Positions 1 through 21,392 of a stretch of 21,392 nt of DNA are shown in pieces. This DNA comes from Candidatus Auribacterota bacterium (GTDB lineage Bacteria > Auribacterota > UBA6266): assembly GCA_023136205.1 (NCBI GenBank), contig JAGLRQ010000078.1, positions 1 to 21,392 of the forward strand, in the 5' to 3' direction. The translations under genes and the position numbers were made by a program. Numbering within the stretch: the first letter of the stretch is position 1; every line of letters starts with the position of its first letter. Below the pieces are notes generated by a model that was not told the origin of the DNA, did not search any database, and was given only the letters and a program-made list of their open reading frames with translations.

Positions 1-56
1 TCTAACAACAAAATGCACCGGACGGGAAAACACCGCCGGTGATTAAGACGTTGAAG
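1..56 (+). other. attC-like recombination site (short type, at window edge). Its R' box is occupied by the 168-bp repeat.
   Basis: R'' is TCTAAC (1-6), spacer AACAA, L'' AATGCACCGG (12-21). L'' pairs with L' CCGGTGATT (36-44), leaving one unpaired G15. The spacer AAGAC follows, then G50|TT. The present R' is GTTGAAG (50-56). Joining G50 to TTAGCA at 212 would give GTTAGCA, which complements R''. Confidence 0.6.
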
Positions 57-215
57 CTGTAGGATAAGTCAAAAGAAGAAAAATGGGCAAATTGTTCTTA
101 AAAAAGCTTTGCATAATTAGGGCTATAACCAACGATCTAAGGCCGTAACAGCATTTTACATGGGTTAAATTTTACAGATTTTTGAGGTGAGGGACTTTTC
201 CTACAGCCTCGTTAG
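48..215 (+). repeat. 168-bp repeat with inverted-repeat ends, copy 1 (mini-cassette or MITE-like element at the attC crossover point)
   Basis: Aligns over its full length with 1751-1918. By hand alignment there are 10 substitutions and two 1-nt indels. The ends CGTTGAAGCTGTAGGATAAGTC and GACTTTTCCTACAGCCTCGTTA are inverted repeats. Confidence 0.95.
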
Positions 216-230
216 CAATAAGGAAGAGAT

Positions 231-1043
231 ATGAAAGGGAAATACATTATTATTGGATGGGTTTTTCTATTTCTTGCTGGTGTAAATATATTGTTTTCTA
301 TACAGTTTCCAAGCAAACGTGATCCATCTATCGATATGCTGTTTGATTTTCCATCAATGTTAACTGTATTTTCAGCAATCGGATGGATCGTTGGTTATAA
401 TATATTCTCGATTGTTGCATTGATTATTGGTGTTATTCATTATTTCAAACACAAAAATTCTCTTGGTAGATTGGTTGTGATTTTATCTATTATGTTTATA
501 TTTTTAACATCTATAATTGGATTCTTTTATAATCCCGACAATAGATTAGACGTTGAACCATATGGCTTTACTTTCATAAGCCATGATAGTTCCGAATACA
601 AAATTGTTTTTTACAAAAAACCACAAGTGAGAAAAGCCACTACTCTTGGGGTACAATCGTATATATATGAAACAGGTACTTCTGGAGTTCTTCCATCTCT
701 TAAACGAGCAGAATTTATACCATTATCAGACACTGCAGCTTTTAGCTCTAATTTAGAAGAAACAATAAAAATATTTTCAAATATATCTGGATTAAAAACC
801 CCAAAAATAAAAATTGAAACGTCTCCTTTGGGGCAAAAGGGAAGTTATTCAGGAACAAAAATAATTAATAATCAAGAATTTTCTGTTAGGGGTGTTGTTT
901 ATGTTGGACAAGTATCAGCAATTCATGCATTGGAGATATACCCCAGTTCTGTCATTAGGGAGTTAGAAAGTATATCCCCAGGAGCAAGCGACTCGTCGTT
1001 TTTAAGTAGTATTAGATTTAAAAACAAGTTCGAAGGAAAATAG
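231..1043 (+). CDS. Hypothetical membrane protein: hydrophobic N-terminal half with several TM helices, soluble C-terminal half
   Basis: 270-aa ORF with AAGGAAGAG upstream of the ATG. Hydrophobic segments in about the first 100 residues. No family recognised. Confidence 0.65.
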   Translation: MKGKYIIIGWVFLFLAGVNILFSIQFPSKRDPSIDMLFDFPSMLTVFSAIGWIVGYNIFSIVALIIGVIHYFKHKNSLGRLVVILSIMFIFLTSIIGFFYNPDNRLDVEPYGFTFISHDSSEYKIVFYKKPQVRKATTLGVQSYIYETGTSGVLPSLKRAEFIPLSDTAAFSSNLEETIKIFSNISGLKTPKIKIETSPLGQKGSYSGTKIINNQEFSVRGVVYVGQVSAIHALEIYPSSVIRELESISPGASDSSFLSSIRFKNKFEGK

Positions 1044-1046
1044 AAA

Positions 1047-1661
1047 ATGAATCTAGGGGAAATTATCATAACTAGTTTAGGTGGCTCTGCTGTTTTATTG
1101 ATGAGTATTGGATTTTTGGTTAGGTCAATTATTAATCATTTTTTATCTAAGGATGTCGAAAAATTTAAAACTGATTTAAAATTATCTTCGGTGGAGCATG
1201 AAATAAGATTTTCAAAATTACAAGAAAAACGGGTAGAAAAAATCGAAGAAATATATCTAAGCCTACGATTTACTTTAGGAAAGGTTAAAGATTTTATTAA
1301 TCGTACGGAGAGAGATGTTGATCCATCAGAAAATTCAGACGAAAGGAAAGACAAAAAACAATATTTAGCTGTAGATGCTATAGAAAAAGTTTATAAAATA
1401 TTTGGAGACAATAAAATTTGGTTAGCAGGGGATGTTGTTGACAAGATAGAAAAATTAATGAATGTAGCCTATCTCCCTGCAATTGAGCTTGCAGATATTC
1501 GCAAGTATAGGAAAGATGAATCTATGCAAACGGAAATAATGAAAACTTGGAAGAATGCATGTGTAAAATTTGAAGAAGAAGCTCCTGTAATCCTGTGTTC
1601 CGTCGAAGAAGAGTTCCGACATATATTGGGTGTTATAGATATGAATAAAAAAAATTGCTAA
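1047..1661 (+). CDS. Hypothetical protein: one N-terminal TM helix followed by a charged, helical or coiled-coil-like region
   Basis: 204-aa ORF starting 3 nt after the stop of 231-1043, so both lie in the same cassette. GAAGGAAAA is upstream. The TAA stop overlaps the R'' box GCTAAC of the following attC. Confidence 0.65.
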   Translation: MNLGEIIITSLGGSAVLLMSIGFLVRSIINHFLSKDVEKFKTDLKLSSVEHEIRFSKLQEKRVEKIEEIYLSLRFTLGKVKDFINRTERDVDPSENSDERKDKKQYLAVDAIEKVYKIFGDNKIWLAGDVVDKIEKLMNVAYLPAIELADIRKYRKDESMQTEIMKTWKNACVKFEEEAPVILCSVEEEFRHILGVIDMNKKNC

Positions 1662-1759
1662 CAAAACGCTTAACTTGACCTTGAATTAGCGTTTGCGCAA
1701 AAATATAAATATTTTTGATTTCTGCATGTATGCAAGGCAAGTTAGCTTGAACGTTGAAG
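1656..1759 (+). other. attC-like recombination site (104 bp, conserved family). Its R' box is occupied by the 168-bp repeat.
   Basis: R'' TGCTAAC (1656-1662), spacer AAAAC, L'' GCTTAACTTGACCTTG. L'' pairs with L' CAAGGCAAGTTAGC (1733-1746), with two extra bases on the 5' arm. The spacer TTGAAC follows, then R' GTTGAAG (1753-1759). Joining G1753 to TTAGAT at 1915 gives a canonical GTTAGAT. Confidence 0.7.
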
Positions 1760-1918
1760 CTGTAGGATAAGTCAAAAGAAGAAAAATGAGCAAATTGTTC
1801 TTAAAAAAGTTTTGCATAATTAGGGCTATAACCAACGATCTTAGACAGTAGCAGCATTTTACATAGCCTGAATTTTACAGATTTTGAGGTTGAGGGACTT
1901 TTCCTACAGCCTCGTTAG
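1751..1918 (+). repeat. 168-bp repeat with inverted-repeat ends, copy 2
   Basis: Full-length match to 48-215. Its first 39 bp and last 50 bp are identical to the half-copies at 5603-5641 and 3972-4021. Confidence 0.95.
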
Positions 1919-1954
1919 ATTTGAAAATTTAAATATAACTTATGAGGCAATTAA

Positions 1955-2575
1955 ATGAAATACAATTGTTTAAAAGAAGTAACAAGATATTGGGATGATC
2001 TTCCTATAAGGCTTAAATTACAGGAAAAAACCCCTGAGCAAGGGAAAAAATATTGGGCAATAAGCATAAGAACAACCTATTTAAATTCTACTAGAAAGAA
2101 CCGTCGGTTTTACTATTCGAAGAAAATAGGTTTTTGGACCATCCCCACAAAAATTATAGTTGAATTATTAAAAGAAGCAGAAGAAAAAGAACTTTTTGAC
2201 AAAATATATAACGATAAGTATGAGCGTTTTGAGGGAGGAACAGCATCATTTATTTATTCAGATAAAACTCCAGATTATCAAAAACATCTTAATAAAATTA
2301 CTTGTTTTAGCAAAAATGAACCTGAATGGATATTTAAAAAACCATTTTTTGTAATTAGCCAAGAGCCTGGAAATACTTGGAGAAAGATAATGATTGTGAA
2401 GCAAGATTTTTCCTTAATAACCTTTCGTTCATGTACTACAGAAAAAACATATAGGCCAAAAATTTATATGGAGGATGATTCTCTTTGGTTCGTGGATAAT
2501 GCGATGATGGATGTTAGTGTGCAAGTAATGAAGATATTTAAAGAGCGTTTATTTGCATTAACCCAGTCGATTTGA
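1955..2575 (+). CDS. Hypothetical cytoplasmic protein (cassette ORF)
   Basis: 206-aa ORF with GAGG 7 nt upstream of the ATG. No TM segment or signal peptide. No family recognised. Confidence 0.6.
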   Translation: MKYNCLKEVTRYWDDLPIRLKLQEKTPEQGKKYWAISIRTTYLNSTRKNRRFYYSKKIGFWTIPTKIIVELLKEAEEKELFDKIYNDKYERFEGGTASFIYSDKTPDYQKHLNKITCFSKNEPEWIFKKPFFVISQEPGNTWRKIMIVKQDFSLITFRSCTTEKTYRPKIYMEDDSLWFVDNAMMDVSVQVMKIFKERLFALTQSI

Positions 2576-2590
2576 AAAGGTTTACGAAAA

Positions 2591-2694
2591 ATCTAACAAG
2601 ACGTTTTGGTGGATGTTGAATAAGCGTTGACGCAAAAAAACAAGTTTTTTTGATTTCTACGTAGTCGCAACACCACTGAACTCAACAGTTAGAG
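2591..2694 (+). other. attC-like recombination site (104 bp, conserved family)
   Basis: R'' ATCTAAC (2591-2597) is a perfect RYYYAAC. Spacer AAGAC, then L'' GTTTTGGTGGATGTTG. L'' pairs with L' CAACACCACTGAAC, with extra bases on the 5' arm. Spacer TCAACA, then R' GTTAGAG (2688-2694), the exact complement of TCTAAC. Confidence 0.75.
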
Positions 2695-2705
2695 TGAGAT
2701 AATAA

Positions 2706-3563
2706 ATGAAAAGAATGGCGGTGATAATTCTAATAGTTGTATGTATATCTTCTGCGTTCATAAGTGTTGCGGATTCTTATGAGGATCAATTTTCTGAAGC
2801 TGTGCTGATGGACGCTTTTGAAAAAGGCCGTTCTTTGGTCATAGCTAATATCCTCTCAGTTCAAAAGAAGAAAGCACAGCATGGTGCTTTTTATTACTAC
2901 AAGGTTAACGTTGTCCATCCTGTGATTCTTGGTGATTTGTTAAATGAAGATCTTCAGGAACCAGTAGAACTGTTTGCAGGAGCCTCTTATGGTGACACAT
3001 TGGGAAAAGGAGAAACCTATGCTTTATTTATTACAAAAGACGCGCCATTCTTTTTTTGTTGGGCTCACAGGGATAACATGCAAAGAATTAATCTAAAAAA
3101 TAAGCAAGAGGTTAGCACGTTCATATCTAAGGCCGAACAAGTGTATGCAAAAACCTCTATTCGAAAGTTTCGGGATACTGAAGCTGGGGATACACCTACA
3201 CTGCCAAACATTCCTGTAGAGCTGAGAAAGATATGCGATACGTTCAGAAAGAAAGAGGAGAACCGAGCCAAATTGGCAAAAACTATTTACCAATCAGAAA
3301 TGGGCTCACGTCCTGATGAATCAAAAAGGTGGTCATCGGATAGAATATATCTCCCTCCCAAGATACTTTTTTCACGAAGTCAAGTTTTACATCTTTTAGG
3401 TAAGCCGACTCTAAAAATAGGCAGGACATATTGTTGGTTCTGCGGTATAGATGATACCAGTTCTCCTAAATATGTAGGAATGCTCACAGGTACATTTGAC
3501 CAAGATGAAAATCTAATTAGATTGATATACAATAGAGACAAAATATTAAAATGGCAGAAATAA
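2706..3563 (+). CDS. Hypothetical secreted protein (cassette ORF)
   Basis: 285-aa ORF with a signal-peptide-like N-terminus (MKRMAVIILIVVCISSAFISVADS). No family recognised. Confidence 0.6.
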   Translation: MKRMAVIILIVVCISSAFISVADSYEDQFSEAVLMDAFEKGRSLVIANILSVQKKKAQHGAFYYYKVNVVHPVILGDLLNEDLQEPVELFAGASYGDTLGKGETYALFITKDAPFFFCWAHRDNMQRINLKNKQEVSTFISKAEQVYAKTSIRKFRDTEAGDTPTLPNIPVELRKICDTFRKKEENRAKLAKTIYQSEMGSRPDESKRWSSDRIYLPPKILFSRSQVLHLLGKPTLKIGRTYCWFCGIDDTSSPKYVGMLTGTFDQDENLIRLIYNRDKILKWQK

Positions 3564-3627
3564 GAAACACTCCAAAATAGAAAACAGGGTCAAATCTTTA
3601 ATCTTGACAAATAAAAATGATAAAAAT

Positions 3628-3720
3628 TTCTAACAATTGCTTCCGACATTGAATAAGCGCTTGCGGCAATAAAATATTGATGTTATGCTTGCGCAACGCG
3701 GATGAAGCAGGCAATTAGTC
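3628..3720 (+). other. attC-like recombination site (93 bp, same family) with a variant R' box
   Basis: R'' TTCTAAC (3628-3634), spacer AATTG, L'' CTTCCGAC, L' GCGGATGAAG, spacer CAGGCA, R' ATTAGTC (3714-3720), which has A where the crossover G is expected. It shares the central module TTGAATAAGCG...TTGCG with the sites at 1656 and 2591. Confidence 0.55.
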
Positions 3721-3745
3721 CAATAAAACCGAAAGAAGATACATC

Positions 3746-3991
3746 ATGAAAAAAATATTATTTACACTATTAATTTTTTTGGCATTATCAAACATCACTT
3801 TCGCCAAAGAGTATCAAAGCTCCTATGGTTTTTCCATCGATGTGCCTGAACATTGGCTTGTATTAACACCTAATGAATTAAAAAATAATCCAGACTTATT
3901 TGATTTTGAAAACGCTGATTTCGGAGGAATAGATAAAACTCTATTGAAACAGGTTATAAACAAAATATGGTCTGAATTTTACAGATTTTGA
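3746..3991 (+). CDS. Signal-peptide protein, probably truncated or chimeric: its last 7 codons (the final one shared with the junction) and the stop come from the right half of the 168-bp repeat
   Basis: 81-aa ORF with signal peptide MKKILFTLLIFLALSNITFA. From 3972 the reading frame runs into sequence that is non-coding in the two full repeat copies, and it stops at a TGA inside that sequence. Confidence 0.5.
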   Translation: MKKILFTLLIFLALSNITFAKEYQSSYGFSIDVPEHWLVLTPNELKNNPDLFDFENADFGGIDKTLLKQVINKIWSEFYRF

Positions 3992-4021
3992 GGTTGAGGG
4001 ACTTTTCCTACAGCCTCGTTA
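3972..4021 (+). repeat. Right-end half-copy (50 bp) of the 168-bp repeat
   Basis: 50/50 identical to 1868-1917. Ends ...CCTACAGCCTCG|TTACGT. Confidence 0.95.
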
Positions 4022-4083
4022 CGTTATATGAAAAATAAAATTCTACCAGCGAACCCAATGATGAAACAAGAAAGGAATATATT

Positions 4084-4470
4084 ATGATAAAAATACCTGA
4101 AGAAGTTAAAATCGCAATCGATAAAACAAATCCTATATGCGTAGCAACTGTTAATAGCGAATATATACCGAATATAATATATGTTACGTTTTTAAAATAC
4201 ATAAATGACACAACTGTGGTTATAGCAGACAATAAACTTGTAAAAACAAAAAACAACGTATTATCTAATGCCAATCTCTCTTTTGTTGTACTTGATCCTG
4301 AAACAAAAAAATCATATCAATTAAAAGGGAAAACGGAATATATAAACGAAGGTGAAAAATATCAGGACGTTTTTAATTGGGTGCAGGAAAAAAGACCGGA
4401 TCTTCATCCTAAAGGTGCTTTATATGTAACCATTGACGAAATCTTTTCCGGAGACAAGAAAATAATATGA
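4084..4470 (+). CDS. Pyridoxamine 5'-phosphate oxidase-like (FMN-binding split-barrel) family protein
   Basis: 128 aa with the typical small PNPOx-like pattern: IPEEVK..I......CVATV......P....V.......D..VVIADN...KT..N......LSFVV.D......YQLKGK.EY...GE. AAAGGA lies upstream of the ATG. The gene is AT-rich like its neighbours. Confidence 0.7.
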   Translation: MIKIPEEVKIAIDKTNPICVATVNSEYIPNIIYVTFLKYINDTTVVIADNKLVKTKNNVLSNANLSFVVLDPETKKSYQLKGKTEYINEGEKYQDVFNWVQEKRPDLHPKGALYVTIDEIFSGDKKII

Positions 4471-4479
4471 GAATTAGCT
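4424..4479 (+). other. Possible degenerate attC site overlapping the 3' end of the PNPOx-like gene
   Basis: ATGTAAC (4424-4430) ... imperfect stem AATCTTTTC/GAAAATAAT ... 6-nt spacer ATGAGA ... ATTAGCT (4473-4479). The pairing is weak, and the crossover position has A instead of G, as at 3714. Confidence 0.3.
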
Positions 4480-4532
4480 TAAAGTCTTGAAATATGAACG
4501 GGGCACAAAAACAAACAGAAAGGGAATAGAGA

Positions 4533-5537
4533 ATGCATATTGGCGAGCTAATAAAGAAATCGCGAGGGGGCGAGGTGCTCTTACGTGAAGAACTTGTCTA
4601 CCTGCTTGGCCACGAGCCGAATTCGGCTGAAAACTACATGGTTATGGCTGAGGCAACCCGTATCTCGAAAGAGCTCTCAGATGGCAAGGCTGAAGTCCAT
4701 GCTCAATTCGCGATCAATCTCGCACCGTGTCCTTGCGACTGTCTCTTCTGCTCTTTCGCAAAAATTAACGGTGTATTCACCGAGGCGACAGAGTTGACCC
4801 CGGAGCAAGCCGTGGCCTACGCCCTCCAATTTGAGAATGACGGCGCGAATGCTGTTTTCATGATGTCAACGGCCAAGTATCCATTTGAAGGCTTCATAGA
4901 GATGTCGCAGGAGGTTAGGAACAATCTGATGCCCGAAACAACATTGATCGCTAACGTCGGTGACCAGTCGCTCAAGAATGCAGCCAAACTTAAGGAGGCT
5001 GGCTTTTCCGGTGTGTATCACGCCGTTCGCCTGCGGGAGGGAATAGACACCAGCCTTTCAGTGAAAAAGAGAAAAGAGAGTATCAGCAACTTTAAAGAAG
5101 TCGGTCTTGAGGTGGGCACATGCGTCGAACCCGTGGGCCCGGAACATACAAACGAAGAATTAGCTGAGATGATAGAATTCACGGCTTCCTTTAATCCCTC
5201 ATACAGCGGCGCAGCCAGGCGCATCCCCATTCATGGAACCGCAATAGCCAAACGCGGGGTGATCAACGAACTGCGTATGGCCCAAATAGTCGCGGTCACC
5301 CGATTGGGAATGCCACGGACTGTAATGGGTAACTGTACACATGAGCCTTGTACTCTGGGTGCGATCGCCGGAGCAAATCTCTTCTGGGCGGAAGTCGGTG
5401 CCAATCCCAGAGATACTGAGGAGAAGACAGAGGAAGGCAGAGGGGAAACCGTTAGTGACTGCAGTTCTATTTTTCAGGAAAGCAATTGGGACGTCTGGAG
5501 CGGTCCATCACGCTATTACAATGGAAGTTCATCATAG
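4533..5537 (+). CDS. Radical SAM enzyme, biotin synthase (BioB)/HydE/ThiH-like family
   Basis: 334 aa. CxxxCxxC cluster motif C-PCD-C-LF-C within AINLAPCPCDCLFCSF. BioB-like C-terminal region (CTHEP...GAN.F). GC is about 53% by eye against about 27% for neighbouring cassettes. Confidence 0.8.
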   Translation: MHIGELIKKSRGGEVLLREELVYLLGHEPNSAENYMVMAEATRISKELSDGKAEVHAQFAINLAPCPCDCLFCSFAKINGVFTEATELTPEQAVAYALQFENDGANAVFMMSTAKYPFEGFIEMSQEVRNNLMPETTLIANVGDQSLKNAAKLKEAGFSGVYHAVRLREGIDTSLSVKKRKESISNFKEVGLEVGTCVEPVGPEHTNEELAEMIEFTASFNPSYSGAARRIPIHGTAIAKRGVINELRMAQIVAVTRLGMPRTVMGNCTHEPCTLGAIAGANLFWAEVGANPRDTEEKTEEGRGETVSDCSSIFQESNWDVWSGPSRYYNGSSS

Positions 5538-5538
5538 C

Positions 5539-5610
5539 ATCGAACAAGGCGCTACACCTGACCGCTATTCCGCTGCGCTCCATTACGGCAGGCGAGCTTG
5601 GTCGTTGAAG
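5539..5610 (+). other. attC-like recombination site (72 bp, GC-rich, belongs to the radical SAM cassette)
   Basis: R'' ATCGAAC (5539-5545) lies directly after the TAG stop. Spacer AAGGC, then L'' GCTACACCTGACCG. L'' pairs with L' CGGCAGGCGAGC, with extra bases on the 5' arm. Spacer TTGGTC, then R' GTTGAAG (5604-5610), whose TTGAAG is the first 6 nt of the repeat's left end. Confidence 0.6.
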
Positions 5611-5641
5611 CTGTAGGATAAGTCAAAAGAAGAAAAATGAG
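5603..5641 (+). repeat. Left-end half-copy (39 bp) of the 168-bp repeat, supplying the 5' leader and ATG of the next ORF
   Basis: 39/39 identical to 1752-1790. Identity ends 2 nt after the ATG at 5637. Confidence 0.95.
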
Positions 5642-6371
5642 AATATTTTATAAACTTGTAAAAATATCTTTAATAGCTAGTTTGTTAAGCTATGTACTCT
5701 TTGTTCTTATATTTGCGGCGGCGGCGTTGCTTGTTGAATCACTATTCTTGCAAATAATTGCCGGAATAGTTTTAATAACGGCTCCTATATCTATGTCTTT
5801 CTTTTGGGGGTCTATGATCTATGATTGTGTAGTTACAATAGAAAACAGGAAAAAGATGGCATTATGGTTGTTATTAATAATATTCACAAATTTTACCGGT
5901 TCATTAATATATTACTTTGTTAAGAAAAGATATAGGTATGTCCCTGCGGGGGAGGTAACGGTAGAGGAAAAACAAGATATAAATTGGTGGGATAAAAATT
6001 GGAAGTGGATTGTCCCTGCCGGTTGCTTAACAATAGTATTGATATTTTTTATTTTCATAGGAGCTTTGTTTGTTGGAATAAGTTCTATAATGAAAGGAAT
6101 GGCTGTTTATAAATATCCTATGAAACTTGTGAATCAAAATGAAGGAATAACAGAACTTCTTGGGAGTCCTATAGAGTCCACTTTTATGATGCAAGGGGAT
6201 GTTTCGACAAAGGGAGATTCCGGAATAGCTGATTTATTAATTCCTGTAAAAGGCCCTAAAGGCACGGGGACAATATATGTTAGTGCTGAAAAGAACTTGG
6301 GGCAGTGGGAATATATCACTTTAGAGATAAAAATAAAATCAACTTCTGAAAGAATTAATTTAATTGAATAA
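5637..6371 (+). CDS. Membrane protein with a PLDc_N-like short TM motif and a C-terminal Coa1-like (cytochrome oxidase assembly factor 1 family) domain
   Basis: 244 aa with multiple N-terminal TM helices. LLLIIFTNFTGSLIYYFVKKR resembles the PLD-nuclease N-terminal motif. The C-terminus (V..N..I.ELLGSPI......GD.S..G..G.A.L.IPVKGPKG.GTIYV.A.K..G.WEY..L) resembles Coa1-family domains. No attC is recognisable downstream. Confidence 0.55.
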   Translation: MRIFYKLVKISLIASLLSYVLFVLIFAAAALLVESLFLQIIAGIVLITAPISMSFFWGSMIYDCVVTIENRKKMALWLLLIIFTNFTGSLIYYFVKKRYRYVPAGEVTVEEKQDINWWDKNWKWIVPAGCLTIVLIFFIFIGALFVGISSIMKGMAVYKYPMKLVNQNEGITELLGSPIESTFMMQGDVSTKGDSGIADLLIPVKGPKGTGTIYVSAEKNLGQWEYITLEIKIKSTSERINLIE

Positions 6372-10767: not shown

Positions 10768-11484
10768 GTGACTCCGGAAACAACAAATATTTCTTATTTA
10801 CTTGCCTTTATATACGGATTTCTTTCTTTTATGTCCCCCTGTGTTTTTCCTTTGATACCATTTTATATTTCTTTTATAACCGGAATATCATTTAACGAAT
10901 TATCCGATTCAAAAGCCCGAAGAAAAATTTTCTTACATACCTTTTTCAGTTCAATACTGTTTGTTCTGGGTTTTTCAGCTGTATTTATAAGCCTGGGAGC
11001 ATCAGCTTCGGTGATAGCAAAAGCTTTCGAAGGGGCAAAAAGGGCAATAGAACTTACGGGGGGAATATTACTTGTCATTTTCGGGCTTCACCTGTGCAAT
11101 ATAATAAAAATTCCTTTCCTGAATTTTGAAAAAAAAATACACTTTAAAAAAAGGCCTTTAGGGGCGCTTGCGCCTTTTCTCTTCGGCCTTATTTTTGCTG
11201 CCGGCTGGACACCCTGCATAGGGCCCCTTGCTGCCGCCGTCATCACTTCTTCCAGCCAGGTAAACAATATTTATCATGCTATGGGATTAATGTTTGTCTT
11301 TTCGCTTGGGATAGGGCTCCCCTTTATTATAATCGCAATGGCATTTAACATATTTCTAAATTTCAGTTCCATAATCCGCAAGCATTTAAACAAGATTCAA
11401 TTAGTTTCCGGGATCTTGATCATAATCACGGGCATTCTCTTTATTTTTAATAAATTCGAAGTTATAATTAGTATAATGTATTAG
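10768..11484 (+). CDS. ccdA: Cytochrome c biogenesis / thiol:disulfide electron-transfer membrane protein, CcdA (DsbD transmembrane domain) family
   Basis: 238 aa. GTG start 3 nt after the folE stop. Polytopic, with both conserved Cys motifs (SFMSPCVFPLIP and GWTPCIGP). Confidence 0.85.
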   Translation: MTPETTNISYLLAFIYGFLSFMSPCVFPLIPFYISFITGISFNELSDSKARRKIFLHTFFSSILFVLGFSAVFISLGASASVIAKAFEGAKRAIELTGGILLVIFGLHLCNIIKIPFLNFEKKIHFKKRPLGALAPFLFGLIFAAGWTPCIGPLAAAVITSSSQVNNIYHAMGLMFVFSLGIGLPFIIIAMAFNIFLNFSSIIRKHLNKIQLVSGILIIITGILFIFNKFEVIISIMY

Positions 11485-18101: not shown

Positions 18102-18373
18102 GACCGTGCACCCGGCCTCGAGGCTCCCCAAAAATTCATCCACCAGCTCCATCGCTCCAGCCAGGCACTCCCACAGCACAAGCAAATTTTTGTTTACCGC
18201 TGCTTTCTTCCAAATCTGACGGGGTTCACAAACATGCCTTCCATGAGACCCAGCCTTCACAGCTAAAGAAAACCGCTTCAGAAAATCCGGGTACCCTCTT
18301 AACAAGGGAATTAAATCCTGCTAGAGCGGATTGCAGGTTACAGGGCACCGCTACCTCCCCATCTAGCACGGTC
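18102..18373 (-). ncRNA. ffs: Signal recognition particle RNA, long (Bacillus-type, Alu-domain-containing) form, about 272 nt
   Basis: The minus strand reads CCGTGCTAGATGGGGAGGTAGCGGTGCCCTGTAACCTGCAATCCGCTCTAGCAGG..., nearly identical to my recollection of the B. subtilis scRNA 5' domain. It contains the domain IV motif GTCAGATTTGGAAGAAAGCAGC and ends GGGTGCACGGTC, which pairs with the 5' end. It sits upstream of dnaX as in Bacillus. The ends are approximate. Confidence 0.85.
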
Positions 18374-18446: not shown

Positions 18447-18523
18447 TGGCACGCCCGAGAGGACTTGAACCTCCAACCTTCTGGTCCGTAGCCAGACACT
18501 CTATCCAATTGAGCTACGGGCGC
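18447..18523 (-). tRNA. tRNA-Arg (anticodon ACG), CCA encoded
   Basis: The minus strand GCGCCCGTAGCTCAATTGGATAGAGTGTCTGGCTACGGACCAGAAGGTTGGAGGTTCAAGTCCTCTCGGGCGTGCCA folds as a cloverleaf. Anticodon stem TCTGG/CCAGA, loop CTACGGA. Confidence 0.9.
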
Positions 18524-19329: not shown

Positions 19330-19418
19330 GGAGAGGTGGCAGAGCGGCTGAATGCGGCGGTCTCGAAAACCGTTATCCCTTCTAGGGATCGGGGGTTCAA
19401 ATCCCTCCCTCTCCGCCA
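19330..19418 (+). tRNA. tRNA-Ser (anticodon CGA), long variable arm, CCA encoded
   Basis: GGAGAGGTGGCAGAGCGGCTGAATGCGGCGGTCTCGAAAACCGTTATCCCTTCTAGGGATCGGGGGTTCAAATCCCTCCCTCTCCGCCA. Anticodon loop CTCGAAA, a long extra arm, and T-loop GGTTCAAATCC. Confidence 0.9.
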
Positions 19419-19544: not shown

Positions 19545-21392
19545 TTACTTATAACCTGTTGCCATCTCCCAGAGTGAATATCCCCAGCCGGTACCGCACT
19601 CGGTTCCATACATTCTTAAATACCGGGCATTAACTGCCGGGACTCTAATTTCATCTATACCGCCATCACCAGTGGTAGTAGAATAAATATCCTGCCAATG
19701 AGTTGCGTCATTTGATATTTGAAGTTGATATGACTTGCCATAAGCAATTTCCCATTCTAATATAACGGTGTTAAAACTTTTCGGTGTGCCAAAATCAATA
19801 TATATCCATTCATTATCGCTCCAATCAGATGCCCATCTGGTATTTAAATCGCCGTCAGAAGCTTTTTCAGCTTCCAGGCCTGCTCCTTCAACTGATGAGG
19901 CCATTACATTCGCATAATGAATATCATAATACACCTCAAATTCCCACAATGAATATCCCCCCCAAACGGTGGCGCGCTCAGTTCCGTAGAAACGTATATA
20001 TCTGGCACTGACAGTATCAAACTCAATTTCATCTATACCACCATCGCTGACAGTGGTTGAATAAACTATCTGCCAGCCTAGAGAATCGTTAGACACTTCA
20101 ATTGCATAGGATTTGCCGTAAGCAGCTTCCCAATTAAGAATAACTTTATTAACTGGCTTTTCTTCTCCTAAATCTATTTGATACCACTGCGGGTCTGAGA
20201 ACTGAGATGACCATCTGGTATATGGATTACCATCTGCAGCATTTGAAGGTGGAAAATATTGATTTTCTTCGCTTGAGGCTGAGGCAGGCTTGTTCTTTGC
20301 CAAGTTAACAGCTAAAGAAAAGTAATCACCACATTTATCTTCGTCCTGCAAGCCTTCCAGATCGGTGGCAGTTAATTTGACAAGATATCTGTCTGCCCTT
20401 GGCAAGGTGGATATATCCCAGGTATAGGCGCAATCGTTGGCCTCACCCAAGGCTATATCCTGCCACCTCATAAATCTTATTTCATCCACATAGATAGTGC
20501 CCGCTCCTGAGCCAATGGAATTAGTAAAGCCGATAGAGAGATTCTCTAAGAAAGCGGTATCTATATCGCTAAAGTCAGTTAAGGGGATAGTTACCATCTG
20601 CCACTCAGCAGTTACTCCGTCTGGTAAGTAATTAGTAATTAAGAGCTTGGTTTCAGCAGAAGTCAAATCCTTTAAGCCAATCTCGAAAACCTCTTGTCCT
20701 ATGGCACCTTTGACCAAAAAGCTTAGCTGTTCATAAGCGCTCATATCCAACTGGGTGGAAAGGCCCGTCCAGAAGCCGCTCTGGCTGCTTATTTGATAGG
20801 TGACGTCGTAGTTTAATTGTAGAGACAGGCCAGTATCACCATAGATAAGAGTTGGGTCATTATTGAATATGGTTTCTATGGCAGCTCCTTCGTAGTTCCA
20901 GGATTCTGACCAAGCATCTAAACTATTAAAGTAATCTTCATCGTTAAAGTTATCTACCAGGATCTGATTTAGGGCATTAGTGTACTGAATATCTATAGCT
21001 AAGGTGTCATCCGGGTCAGGGTCAACTGCCTGCCAGAGGATTTCATAAGTATCTGAGCCTATTTGTTCGCTTCCCCAGGGTTGGGAAATAACGATAAGAG
21101 GATGCTCATTAATGGCATCCGGAATTACCTCAACAGGTGTTGATTCAGATGATAAGTTACCGGCAGTGTCTTCAATAACCGCGTTTACCTCACTGCCTAT
21201 CTGGACATTAACAGGTTCTAAATCTGGACGTAATGTGTTGTGGGCGGTATTAATCAAATTATAAATCGCAGTATTTAGAGTCTCTTGGTCGGCAGAAATG
21301 GTGTTATTGATATAATTTGTAACAACTGAAGGATAAGTGGCAGTAGCGCCTGCTTCCATGTCAACTGCCAAAACTGCTGAGGAGTTTAGGAT
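19545..21392 (-). CDS. Large secreted or surface carbohydrate-binding protein (5' end outside the window) with a CBM11/CIA30-like region and two tandem F5/8 type C (discoidin, CBM32-like) domains
   Basis: The frame stays open to the window edge; the track's TTG at 21371 is probably internal. Two about 140-aa repeats each contain ...A.DG...TRW.S......W..IDLG......V.L.WE.AYGKSY.....ND...W...YSTT..DGG.DEI.......ARY.R.YG.......GYSLWE. Confidence 0.8.
   Translation of the reverse strand: MLNSSAVLAVDMEAGATATYPSVVTNYINNTISADQETLNTAIYNLINTAHNTLRPDLEPVNVQIGSEVNAVIEDTAGNLSSESTPVEVIPDAINEHPLIVISQPWGSEQIGSDTYEILWQAVDPDPDDTLAIDIQYTNALNQILVDNFNDEDYFNSLDAWSESWNYEGAAIETIFNNDPTLIYGDTGLSLQLNYDVTYQISSQSGFWTGLSTQLDMSAYEQLSFLVKGAIGQEVFEIGLKDLTSAETKLLITNYLPDGVTAEWQMVTIPLTDFSDIDTAFLENLSIGFTNSIGSGAGTIYVDEIRFMRWQDIALGEANDCAYTWDISTLPRADRYLVKLTATDLEGLQDEDKCGDYFSLAVNLAKNKPASASSEENQYFPPSNAADGNPYTRWSSQFSDPQWYQIDLGEEKPVNKVILNWEAAYGKSYAIEVSNDSLGWQIVYSTTVSDGGIDEIEFDTVSARYIRFYGTERATVWGGYSLWEFEVYYDIHYANVMASSVEGAGLEAEKASDGDLNTRWASDWSDNEWIYIDFGTPKSFNTVILEWEIAYGKSYQLQISNDATHWQDIYSTTTGDGGIDEIRVPAVNARYLRMYGTECGTGWGYSLWEMATGYK

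Follow-up and report, generated by a model that had tools for sequence, protein, structure and literature searches.

Truncated copies of a 158-bp miniature transposable element, probably two of them, bracket a PNPOx and radical SAM gene block in an integron-type cassette array of Candidatus Auribacterota

The window analysed here is a stretch of 21,392 nucleotides from Candidatus Auribacterota bacterium (GCA_023136205.1, contig JAGLRQ010000078.1, positions 1 to 21,392 of the forward strand), in which pieces of a short repeat lie on either side of a PNPOx-family gene and a radical SAM gene in the order right end, left end. A reading made from the letters alone (the sequence-only reading) had described these pieces as one split copy of the repeat, arranged as in a circularised element. 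The repeat was identified as a miniature inverted-repeat transposable element (MITE) which shares its ends, its target and its duplication with insertion sequences (IS) of the IS1182 family. With a probability of roughly 0.8, the two halves are remnants of two independently truncated MITE copies, left by ordinary decay of a cassette array and not forming a new mobile unit. Positions 1-5606 are in all likelihood the distal part of an integron-type cassette array of Candidatus Auribacterota (Aureabacteria), abutting the chromosomal gene at 5637-6371.

The repeat, its relatives and its target

The repeat is identified as a MITE because it has inverted ends, GTT flanks, full-length relatives with a transposase and a whole-length alignment to MITEs of other phyla. 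It had been described as a 168-bp element; the repeat is real, and the element proper measures 158 bp, whereas the larger figure counts the flanking GTT and some adjacent bases as well. The copies in the window, with their terminal inverted repeats (TIRs), are as follows.

MITE copy 1: 53..210, + strand, 158 bp; TIRs 53-70 and 193-210; GTT at 50-52 and 211-213
GTT 50-52: + strand, left target-duplication copy of MITE copy 1 (from sequence)
MITE copy 2: 1756..1913, + strand, 158 bp; TIRs 1756-1773 and 1896-1913; GTT at 1753-1755 and 1914-1916
MITE_a remnant (third copy): 3967..4017, + strand, element positions 108-158; right TIR 4000-4017
GTT 4018..4020: + strand, right target-duplication copy of MITE_a; start of the PNPOx cassette (GTTACGT)
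GTT 5604-5606: + strand, left target-duplication copy of MITE_b
MITE_b remnant (fourth copy): 5607..5641, + strand, element positions 1-35; left TIR 5607-5624

Copies 1 and 2 are 92.5% identical. The 18-nt end motif GARGCTGTAGGAWAAGTC was found exactly six times in the window (+ strand at 53, 1756 and 5607; - strand at 193-210, 1896-1913 and 4000-4017), against 0.04 matches expected from shuffles, and the two ends, GAAGCTGTAGGATAAGTC and GAGGCTGTAGGAAAAGTC, agree at 16 of 18 positions. Full copies read ...CGTT/GAAGC...GCCTC/GTTA... (slashes mark junctions here and below), with GTT on both sides of copies 1 and 2; in the flank analysis set, GTT (AAC on the reverse strand) stood on both sides of 42 distinct paired-end elements. 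These flanks represent in all probability a 3-bp target duplication, though formally a one-sided GTT could belong to the element. The repeat is small, non-coding and multicopy, with two full and two partial copies in 5.6 kb and a single 21-codon open reading frame (ORF; MSKLFLKKFCIIRAITNDLRQ and a stop, at 83-148 and 1786-1851), which differs between copies 1 and 2 by 3 amino acid replacements, 2 synonymous changes and TAG to TAA at the stop. Neither a promoter-like site nor an Rfam match was found within the MITE, and the consensus structure of 18 MITEs supported the TIR stem alone.

The window MITEs align end to end with AT-rich and GC-rich MITEs of other phyla, in which an internal ..ATCGACGATC.. 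(including ..CGATC..; window form ACCAACGATC) is conserved. Across hosts the length stays at 157-159 bp while GC runs from 36% to 59% (window copies and 16 MITEs of other phyla), and the ..ATCGACGATC.. motif is missing from the full-length IS copies examined; the constant length and the motif suggest constraint beyond the TIRs. The right part of the repeat is MITE sequence and not attC, because the alignment with MITEs of other phyla covers its whole length. The right 99 bp, whose start GGGCTATAAC is R''-like, had been tried as an attC and was rejected: they align with MITE interiors of other phyla, and a homologous cassette elsewhere carries a different attC. Derivation of the MITE interior from full-length IS ends was likewise rejected, similarity to the sampled IS copies being limited to the TIRs. 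No match to the left end of the window MITE subfamily was obtained in the JGI metagenome scan.

Relatives were sought in other genomes by a scan for the 18-mer with one genome per species, which gave ends at at least 119 loci. Among the matches listed, 82 of 126 lay directly after GTT or, on the reverse strand, AAC; the base 5' of GTT was nearly always C, the right flank was GTTRRRY, and paired ends fell into two size classes of 142-221 bp (mode 157-158) and 1743-1813 bp. Hosts belong to at least ten phyla, including Gemmatimonadota, Nitrospirota, KSB1, Desulfobacterota and Spirochaetota, with further ends in Beta- and Gammaproteobacteria, Armatimonadota, Eisenbacteria, Fibrobacterota and Actinomycetota. 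The long elements code for proteins of 510-528 aa. The Nitrospirota transposase scored 275.5 bits against NCBIfam NF033551 (IS1182 family; cutoff 270), a test that applies to full-length relatives and not to the window copies, and the Nitrospirota and Gemmatimonadota transposases matched Pfam DDE_Tnp_1_6 and DUF772, with DDE_Tnp_1 also matched. Candidate autonomous partners, IS of 1743-1813 bp with the same TIRs and GTT flanks, were thus present in Nitrospirota, Gemmatimonadota and one JGI contig. Homologues of IntI were located within about 3 kb of IS or MITE ends at three loci (L105, with 50% identity over 323 aa, L048 and L108).

Two host genomes gave observations of their own. The Nitrospirota metagenome-assembled genome (MAG) MFD03726.bin.2.99 holds at least 15 near-identical IS ends, with 11 paired copies each of 1811 bp (loci L017, L024, L041, L055, L056, L071, L075, L086, L111, L113, L116, L117, L123 and L128); their flanks are mutually complementary and covary between copies, being GTGGGCTCGGCGTT and GTTACTCGCCCAC, or GCGGGCTGGACGTT and GTTACCAGCCCA. 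The right flank of a 158-bp MITE in a Deferrisomatales MAG (L084), GTTGAAGC, shows GTT and then the apparent start of another left end, which suggests tandem or nested insertions.

The insertion point is the CGTT/RRRY core of attC R', directly after GTT. The attC sites recognised in the window are as follows.

attC site A: 1..52, + strand, cut by the window start; ends CGTT (sequence)
attC site B: 1656..1755, + strand, 3' of ORF 1047-1661; R''-like GCTAAC/GCTTAAC; ends ...GAACGTT (sequence, fold)
attC site C: 2591..2694, + strand, unoccupied; R'' ATCTAAC, R' GTTAGAG, A (not C) before R' (sequence, fold)
attC site D: 3628..3720, + strand, unoccupied; R'' TTCTAAC, degenerate R' ATTAGTC (sequence)
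attC site F: 5539..5606, + strand, R'' ATCGAAC to ...GGTCGTT

Site B is occupied by MITE copy 2, and site A matches an attC plus TIR at another locus (L119) at 78%. The occupied attC ends in the window are CGTT, the two unoccupied ones AGTT and AATT. Site F has counterparts in a Syntrophaceae MAG (86% identity) and a Spirochaetales MAG (80%); its family, about 68 nt long, is extremely conserved and widespread (RYYYAACAAGGCGCTSCACCTGACCGCTATTCCGCTG..CATAGCGGCAGGYGAGCTTGGTCGTT; loci L141-L260). At least 120 contigs of JGI metagenomes contain an exact copy of the 3' 21-mer of site F, CGGCAGGYGAGCTTGGTCGTT, and the family ends there read RYYYAAC...GTTRRRY. Among the matches listed, 125 of 126 metagenomic sites of this family were empty, GTT being followed by RRRY and unrelated cassette DNA, and one (L181) was occupied, with the TIR of a full IS behind its GTT; the transposase of this IS begins MARYKDYDYSQGKFIPIHF. 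In Gemmatimonadota arrays, attC paralogues were either intact (GCGTTAGAC...) or broken directly after GCGTT. No empty allele of the window's own occupied sites was found. A covariation test between R'' and R' over 82 attC F-family sites (2.17 vs 1.97 matches of 4) was discarded as invalid, because in a linear array it is the next cassette that supplies the four bases behind GTT.

The two remnants and their variant alleles

The genes around the remnants, and the repeat that delimits one variant, are listed here.

Secreted-protein gene, 5' part: 3746..3966, + strand, 221 nt of a 201-aa cassette gene; now a pseudogene
PNPOx-family gene: 4084..4470, + strand, 30% GC (Pfam PF01243; composition)
Radical SAM gene: 4533..5537, + strand, 50% GC; its own attC follows (Pfam PF04055; composition)
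244-aa gene: 5637..6371, + strand, PLDc_N plus Coa1-like (Pfam)
ATGAGAAT repeat: 4467..4474 and 5637-5644, + strand, endpoints of a 1170-bp deletion in variant L008

The identities which the sequence-only reading had recorded, 3972-4021 to positions 1868-1917 of copy 2 (50/50) and 5603-5641 to 1752-1790 (39/39), were confirmed, as were the consequences it had described for the ORFs at both outer edges. Variant alleles were obtained by exact-protein look-ups, as contigs from other samples and assemblers, and show that two copies suffered outward deletions, one of the options that had been proposed.

For the right remnant, the decisive variant is L011, which equals the window on either side of 3966/3967 and carries 436 bp more at that point. 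The extra bases complete an ORF of 201 aa, the intact version of ORF 3746-3991 that had been called for; all 30 homologues of the secreted protein that were found have about 200 aa. Ten bases past the stop, a stretch of 92 nt corresponds to MITE positions 68-158. Its identity is 91% with copy 2 and 86% with copy 1, which makes it a separate, diverged third copy; the earlier view that perfect identity implies recent events finds no support in this comparison. In the window allele codon 74 is joined to MITE position 108 at the deletion junction 3966/3967, and ORF 3746-3991 has 74 native codons followed by WSEFYRF and a stop from MITE sequence. True homology therefore starts at 3967 and not at 3972 as first placed (55-nt alignment 3967-4021 with copy 2, 96% identical). 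An independent deletion at the same locus was found in L013, between two ACAG tetramers, where only CCTCGTTACG remains. In the homologous cassettes of two loci from other metagenomes (L133 and L134) the stop is followed by the 3' untranslated region (UTR) CAAACAAGG and then by ACTAAC, the R'' of an ordinary attC (CAAACAAGGACTAAC); at the same point L011 has CAAAACAAGG directly followed by GCTATAACC (MITE position 68), that is, the 3' UTR and then MITE-interior GCTATAAC. To judge from this alignment, the L011 state would have arisen by a deletion that ran, across a short and imperfect match, from the lost attC R'' to about MITE position 67. Another homologue of the secreted protein, 62% identical, stands in a chromosomal context and was uninformative.

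For the left remnant, the ORF 5637-6371 starts at an ATG inside the MITE left end. Its ortholog in a related species (84% identity) agrees with it over the first 21 residues and has another leader (GGAAAAATGAAATGAGAAT); the genes downstream are shared (391-aa ORF, endonuclease III, PolX, GTP cyclohydrolase I, ...), and upstream of the ortholog lie ordinary chromosomal genes with no array. The 244-aa gene is thus a conserved chromosomal gene and not a cassette, the array ends there, and the MITE leader is not ancestral to the gene, an alternative that had been raised as a possible refutation. AAATGAG (5635-5641) is common to the MITE and to the native gene start and forms the deletion junction: the ortholog leader reads ...CATTGGAAAAATGAAATGAGAATATTTTAT, the MITE ...AAGAAGAAAAATGAGCAAATTG and the window ...AAGAAGAAAAATGAGAATATTTTAT. 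The start-codon breakpoint of the sequence-only reading is a junction at microhomology, and neither the start codon nor the protein has changed. A search for the other side of the array, made through the ortholog's Mem_trans neighbour, gave no counterpart in this species.

The sequence-only reading had proposed that the fusion was selected, the MITE giving the gene a better translation-initiation region (a portable ribosome-binding site plus ATG). On the leader sequences compared, this looks unlikely, though it is the best of the alternatives. The MITE does carry AAGAAG 4 bases 5' of the ATG, like the purine-rich leaders of other cassette genes, and every contig of this species but L008 carries the fusion of MITE_b with the 244-aa gene. 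The native start region, however, already has GGAAAAATGAAATGAG, the MITE has no recognisable promoter-like site, the protein keeps the start codon and N-terminus of the ortholog, and the junction lies within a 7-nt identity, as slippage would give. In L008, moreover, ATGAGAAT, part of an imperfect match of 17/19, links the PNPOx stop codon to the 244-aa gene. There an event of the same kind has put the 3' sequence of PNPOx in place of the MITE leader, and the deletion has taken away the MITE remnant, the radical SAM gene and the attC of that gene. Survival only of deletions that spare the gene explains the breakpoint, and positive selection is not needed.

The preferred course of events, two separate truncations, would run as follows. 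At least four MITEs would have inserted in the same orientation at attC R' cores, each directly after GTT (CGTT/RRRY), and two of these stay intact. MITE_a would have occupied the attC of the secreted-protein cassette. A first deletion would have taken this attC together with the left ~67 bp of the element, leaving the state kept in L011; a second, of 436 bp, cost the gene 128 codons at its 3' end and the MITE another 41 bases and gave the window allele. MITE_b would have occupied the array's last attC, that of the radical SAM cassette. A deletion between the AAATGAG inside this MITE and the same seven bases at the beginning of the chromosomal gene would have removed the right ~123 bp of the MITE and the intervening DNA, leaving the 244-aa gene intact, as only deletions sparing this conserved gene would persist. 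L008 would be the same process carried further. The former full-length MITE_a and MITE_b and the lost attC are presumed on these alignments, and the deletions may be replication-slippage or illegitimate-recombination events. Such a history accounts for each peculiarity of the arrangement: the right-end...left-end order with G/TT at both inner edges, because two same-orientation insertions each duplicate GTT; the abrupt outer edges, because each of the two truncations lies on the outer side; the perfect match of the parts that remain, because the terminal parts are the best conserved of the element; and the breaks of assemblies at these positions, because MITE copies lie there.

That a single copy was split, either by a circle of element plus PNPOx-radical SAM segment opening inside the element and re-integrating, or by insertion of a cassette into the element, would likewise fit the right-end...left-end order with G/TT at both inner edges and the perfect match of both halves to copy 2; we hold it to be very improbable. 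The G/TT belongs to the 3-bp GTT found beside all insertions of this family, and the outer edges coincide with independent deletion scars (the truncated 201-aa gene, and the microhomology at the chromosomal gene start). The remnants are non-contiguous even in L011, the least-deleted allele, which lacks positions 36-67 and whose remnant differs from copies 1 and 2 by 9-14%, and insertion into an element predicts left-insert-right, not right-insert-left.

No more probable is the view that the 168-bp unit is a miniature cassette (a leader with ribosome-binding site and ATG, plus an attC) and that the halves are native to neighbouring cassettes, a version of the chimera of attC end and cassette leader suggested earlier. 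The unit does lie between G/TT boundaries like a cassette, its 21-codon ORF keeps a stop as TAG or TAA, and in L011 its right part comes directly after a cassette ORF. It is contradicted by the 18-nt inverted ends around a GTT direct repeat, by the same ends bounding 1.8-kb elements that encode a transposase, by the internal part conserved with MITEs of other phyla, by the homologous cassette with a different, ordinary attC after the same 3' UTR, and by the attC F family, in which no left end but ordinary cassette DNA followed GTT at 125 of 126 copies among the matches listed.

Mis-joining at 3966-4021 and 5603-5641 through short perfect repeats has next to no probability: contigs of several assemblies do break at MITE copies (e.g. 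at window position 1 and around 1724), but both junctions recur in independent assemblies and samples and in two NCBI MAGs, with strain-level single-nucleotide polymorphisms in several junction-bearing contigs, and the alternative alleles are biologically coherent, as with the intact 201-aa ORF. The first junction (3966/3967-4021) was also found in L001, L010 and L012, and the second (5603-5641) in L005, L007 (GCA_030639325.1), L009, L011 and L012; L139 (GCA_023139245.1) has the same gene order across 5603-5641. The assembly chimeras against which a check had been recommended can thus be set aside.

Several points weigh against the reading of two decayed insertions in attC sites. All variants are known as assembled contigs, and among them no allele with an intact MITE_a, an intact MITE_b or the lost attC was recovered. 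The 436-bp deletion ends without microhomology, and the native leader of the 244-aa gene was taken from a related species (84% protein identity), not this one. No IntI1-like ORF was found in the window by tblastn, and neither an integron integrase nor a full-length IS with these ends was seen in the window or in contigs of this organism; the interiors of the MITEs show no detectable descent from any full-length IS that was sampled. In MFD03726.bin.2.99 the IS target is the centre of short palindromes that are possibly not attC, and the target of the IS/MITE lineage may be CGTT in a hairpin context generally, rather than attC as such.

Array layout and the rest of the window

Throughout 1-5606 the genes point the same way, and an imperfect palindrome with cores of the ..YAAC and GTTRRRY type comes after every gene or gene pair; R''/R' palindromes after ORFs were recognised at sites B, C, D and F. 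A cassette also recurred in different contexts with its boundaries at attC cores: the secreted-protein gene, at 91-95% amino acid identity, stands behind different attCs in L133 and L134. The secreted-protein cassette begins directly 3' of site D, its 5' boundary being taken from this comparison, in which homology starts at the TTA of R'. Minimum free energy folding was dropped as evidence for attC; bottom-strand folds of the array sites gave z of -1.8 to +0.8, weak evidence alone, and the bottom-strand hairpin of site A z = -2.8. As the window starts inside the array, the array may be a cluster of attC sites lacking integron-integrases (CALIN) or the distal end of a larger integron.

The secreted-protein pseudogene, the PNPOx gene and the radical SAM gene form a fused and probably immobile block, no attC being left between those at 3628-3720 and 5539-5606. 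The gap between the PNPOx gene (30% GC) and the radical SAM gene (50% GC) is 62 bp and has no attC; the jump in GC suggests two cassettes of different origin fused through loss of an attC. The spacer itself (4471-4532) was tried as an attC or MITE remnant and rejected, its local alignments being no better than those of shuffles.

A same-sample scaffold, L005 (6317-6416), differs from the window at ~11416-11470 near the DsbD_TM gene, with ~100 extra bases and a 55-nt overlap, and has no DsbD_TM gene call; a gap in the scaffold or a local variant probably accounts for the difference. In its chromosomal part the window holds a large bacterial signal recognition particle RNA (147 bits; 18104-18371, - strand) and tRNA genes at 18450-18523 (- strand) and 19330-19415 (+ strand). 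A 51-nt direct repeat (19647-19697 and 20025-20075; 75% identical, 378 bp apart) lies within the 608-aa ORF 19545-21371 (- strand) and is probably an internal protein repeat.

Comparison with known systems and significance

Small non-autonomous elements with TIRs are known around integrons from the Acinetobacter 439-bp MITE pair (the 'integron mobilization unit'), which flanks whole integrons and mobilises them as composite units. Pairs of copies can bracket integron DNA in both cases; the Acinetobacter elements differ in that they do not target attC cores, and the bracketing copies of the window are truncated on their outer sides and cannot act as a composite transposon. The attI1 ORF-11, which acts via translational coupling, is also a short upstream ORF or leader before an integron gene. 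The likeness would end there, since the 244-aa gene keeps its own start codon and N-terminus and microhomology explains its junction. Tetu & Holmes reportedly described in 2008 that IS1111-attC elements leave degenerate footprints at array termini.

In the literature searched, the elements described as targeting attC sites were those of the IS1111-attC group and the introns of group IIC-attC (and group IIB) (PMC3001079; PMC11187229; PMC7923331). IS1111-attC elements have a DEDD transposase, are guided by seekRNA and make no target duplication (PMC3001079; PMC11187229); both they and group IIC-attC introns insert near the attC 5' end, antisense to the cassettes (PMC3001079; PMC11187229; PMC7923331), and the introns are often in the last cassettes of arrays (PMC3001079). 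One survey reported IS5-type transposases to be the commonest in plant-associated cassette arrays, with no target described (PMC11089894). The window lineage, like the IS1111-attC group (ISPa21, ISPst6, ISKpn4; IS110/IS1111 family), invades attC sites of arrays, but its relatives are IS1182-family DDE elements with 18-nt TIRs, GTT duplication, insertion at the 3' R' crossover and MITEs; DEDD transposase, subterminal repeats and absence of target duplication were not what was found. Group IIC-attC introns are likewise an attC-specialised mobile lineage and differ in having a ribozyme and reverse transcriptase, insertion in the bottom strand near the attC 5' end, and no TIRs or target duplication. 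With the IS1182 family (IS5-related DDE) the full-length relatives share the NCBIfam model, DUF772 plus DDE_Tnp_1_6, a length of 1.74-1.81 kb and TIRs, whereas the window copies are 158 bp and non-coding, with an interior not recognisably derived from an IS. No description of an IS1182-family or MITE insertion at the GTT of attC R' was met in the literature searched, ISfinder and most subscription papers lying outside the search.

More interesting than the split copy is this by-product of the analysis, the attC-specific IS1182/MITE lineage. Tentatively, and with considerable doubt, the IS1182-family DDE transposons and the length-conserved ~158-bp MITE may be taken as an apparently undescribed lineage, present in at least ten phyla and specialised on the integron crossover point (CGTT/RRRY), which could hitch-hike on integrase-mediated cassette movement and promote cassette fusion and array decay. 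Since GTT is duplicated and the element begins GARG, an invaded attC keeps a GTTGARG core. If the proposal holds, the element would become the 5' head of the downstream cassette, and hitch-hiking on integrase-mediated movement would therefore be possible. The lineage would then be a third, mechanistically different integron parasite, hitting the base triplet used by the integrase, with relevance to cassette mobility, array stability, automated annotation of attCs and cassettes, and metagenome assembly, in which contigs break at its copies. It is widespread in environmental phyla. Partial repeats in 'circular' order around cassettes can come from two same-orientation insertions followed by deletions, and the population variants of this organism trace the decay of an array end through attC loss, fusion of cassettes into an immobile block, pseudogenisation and cassette loss.

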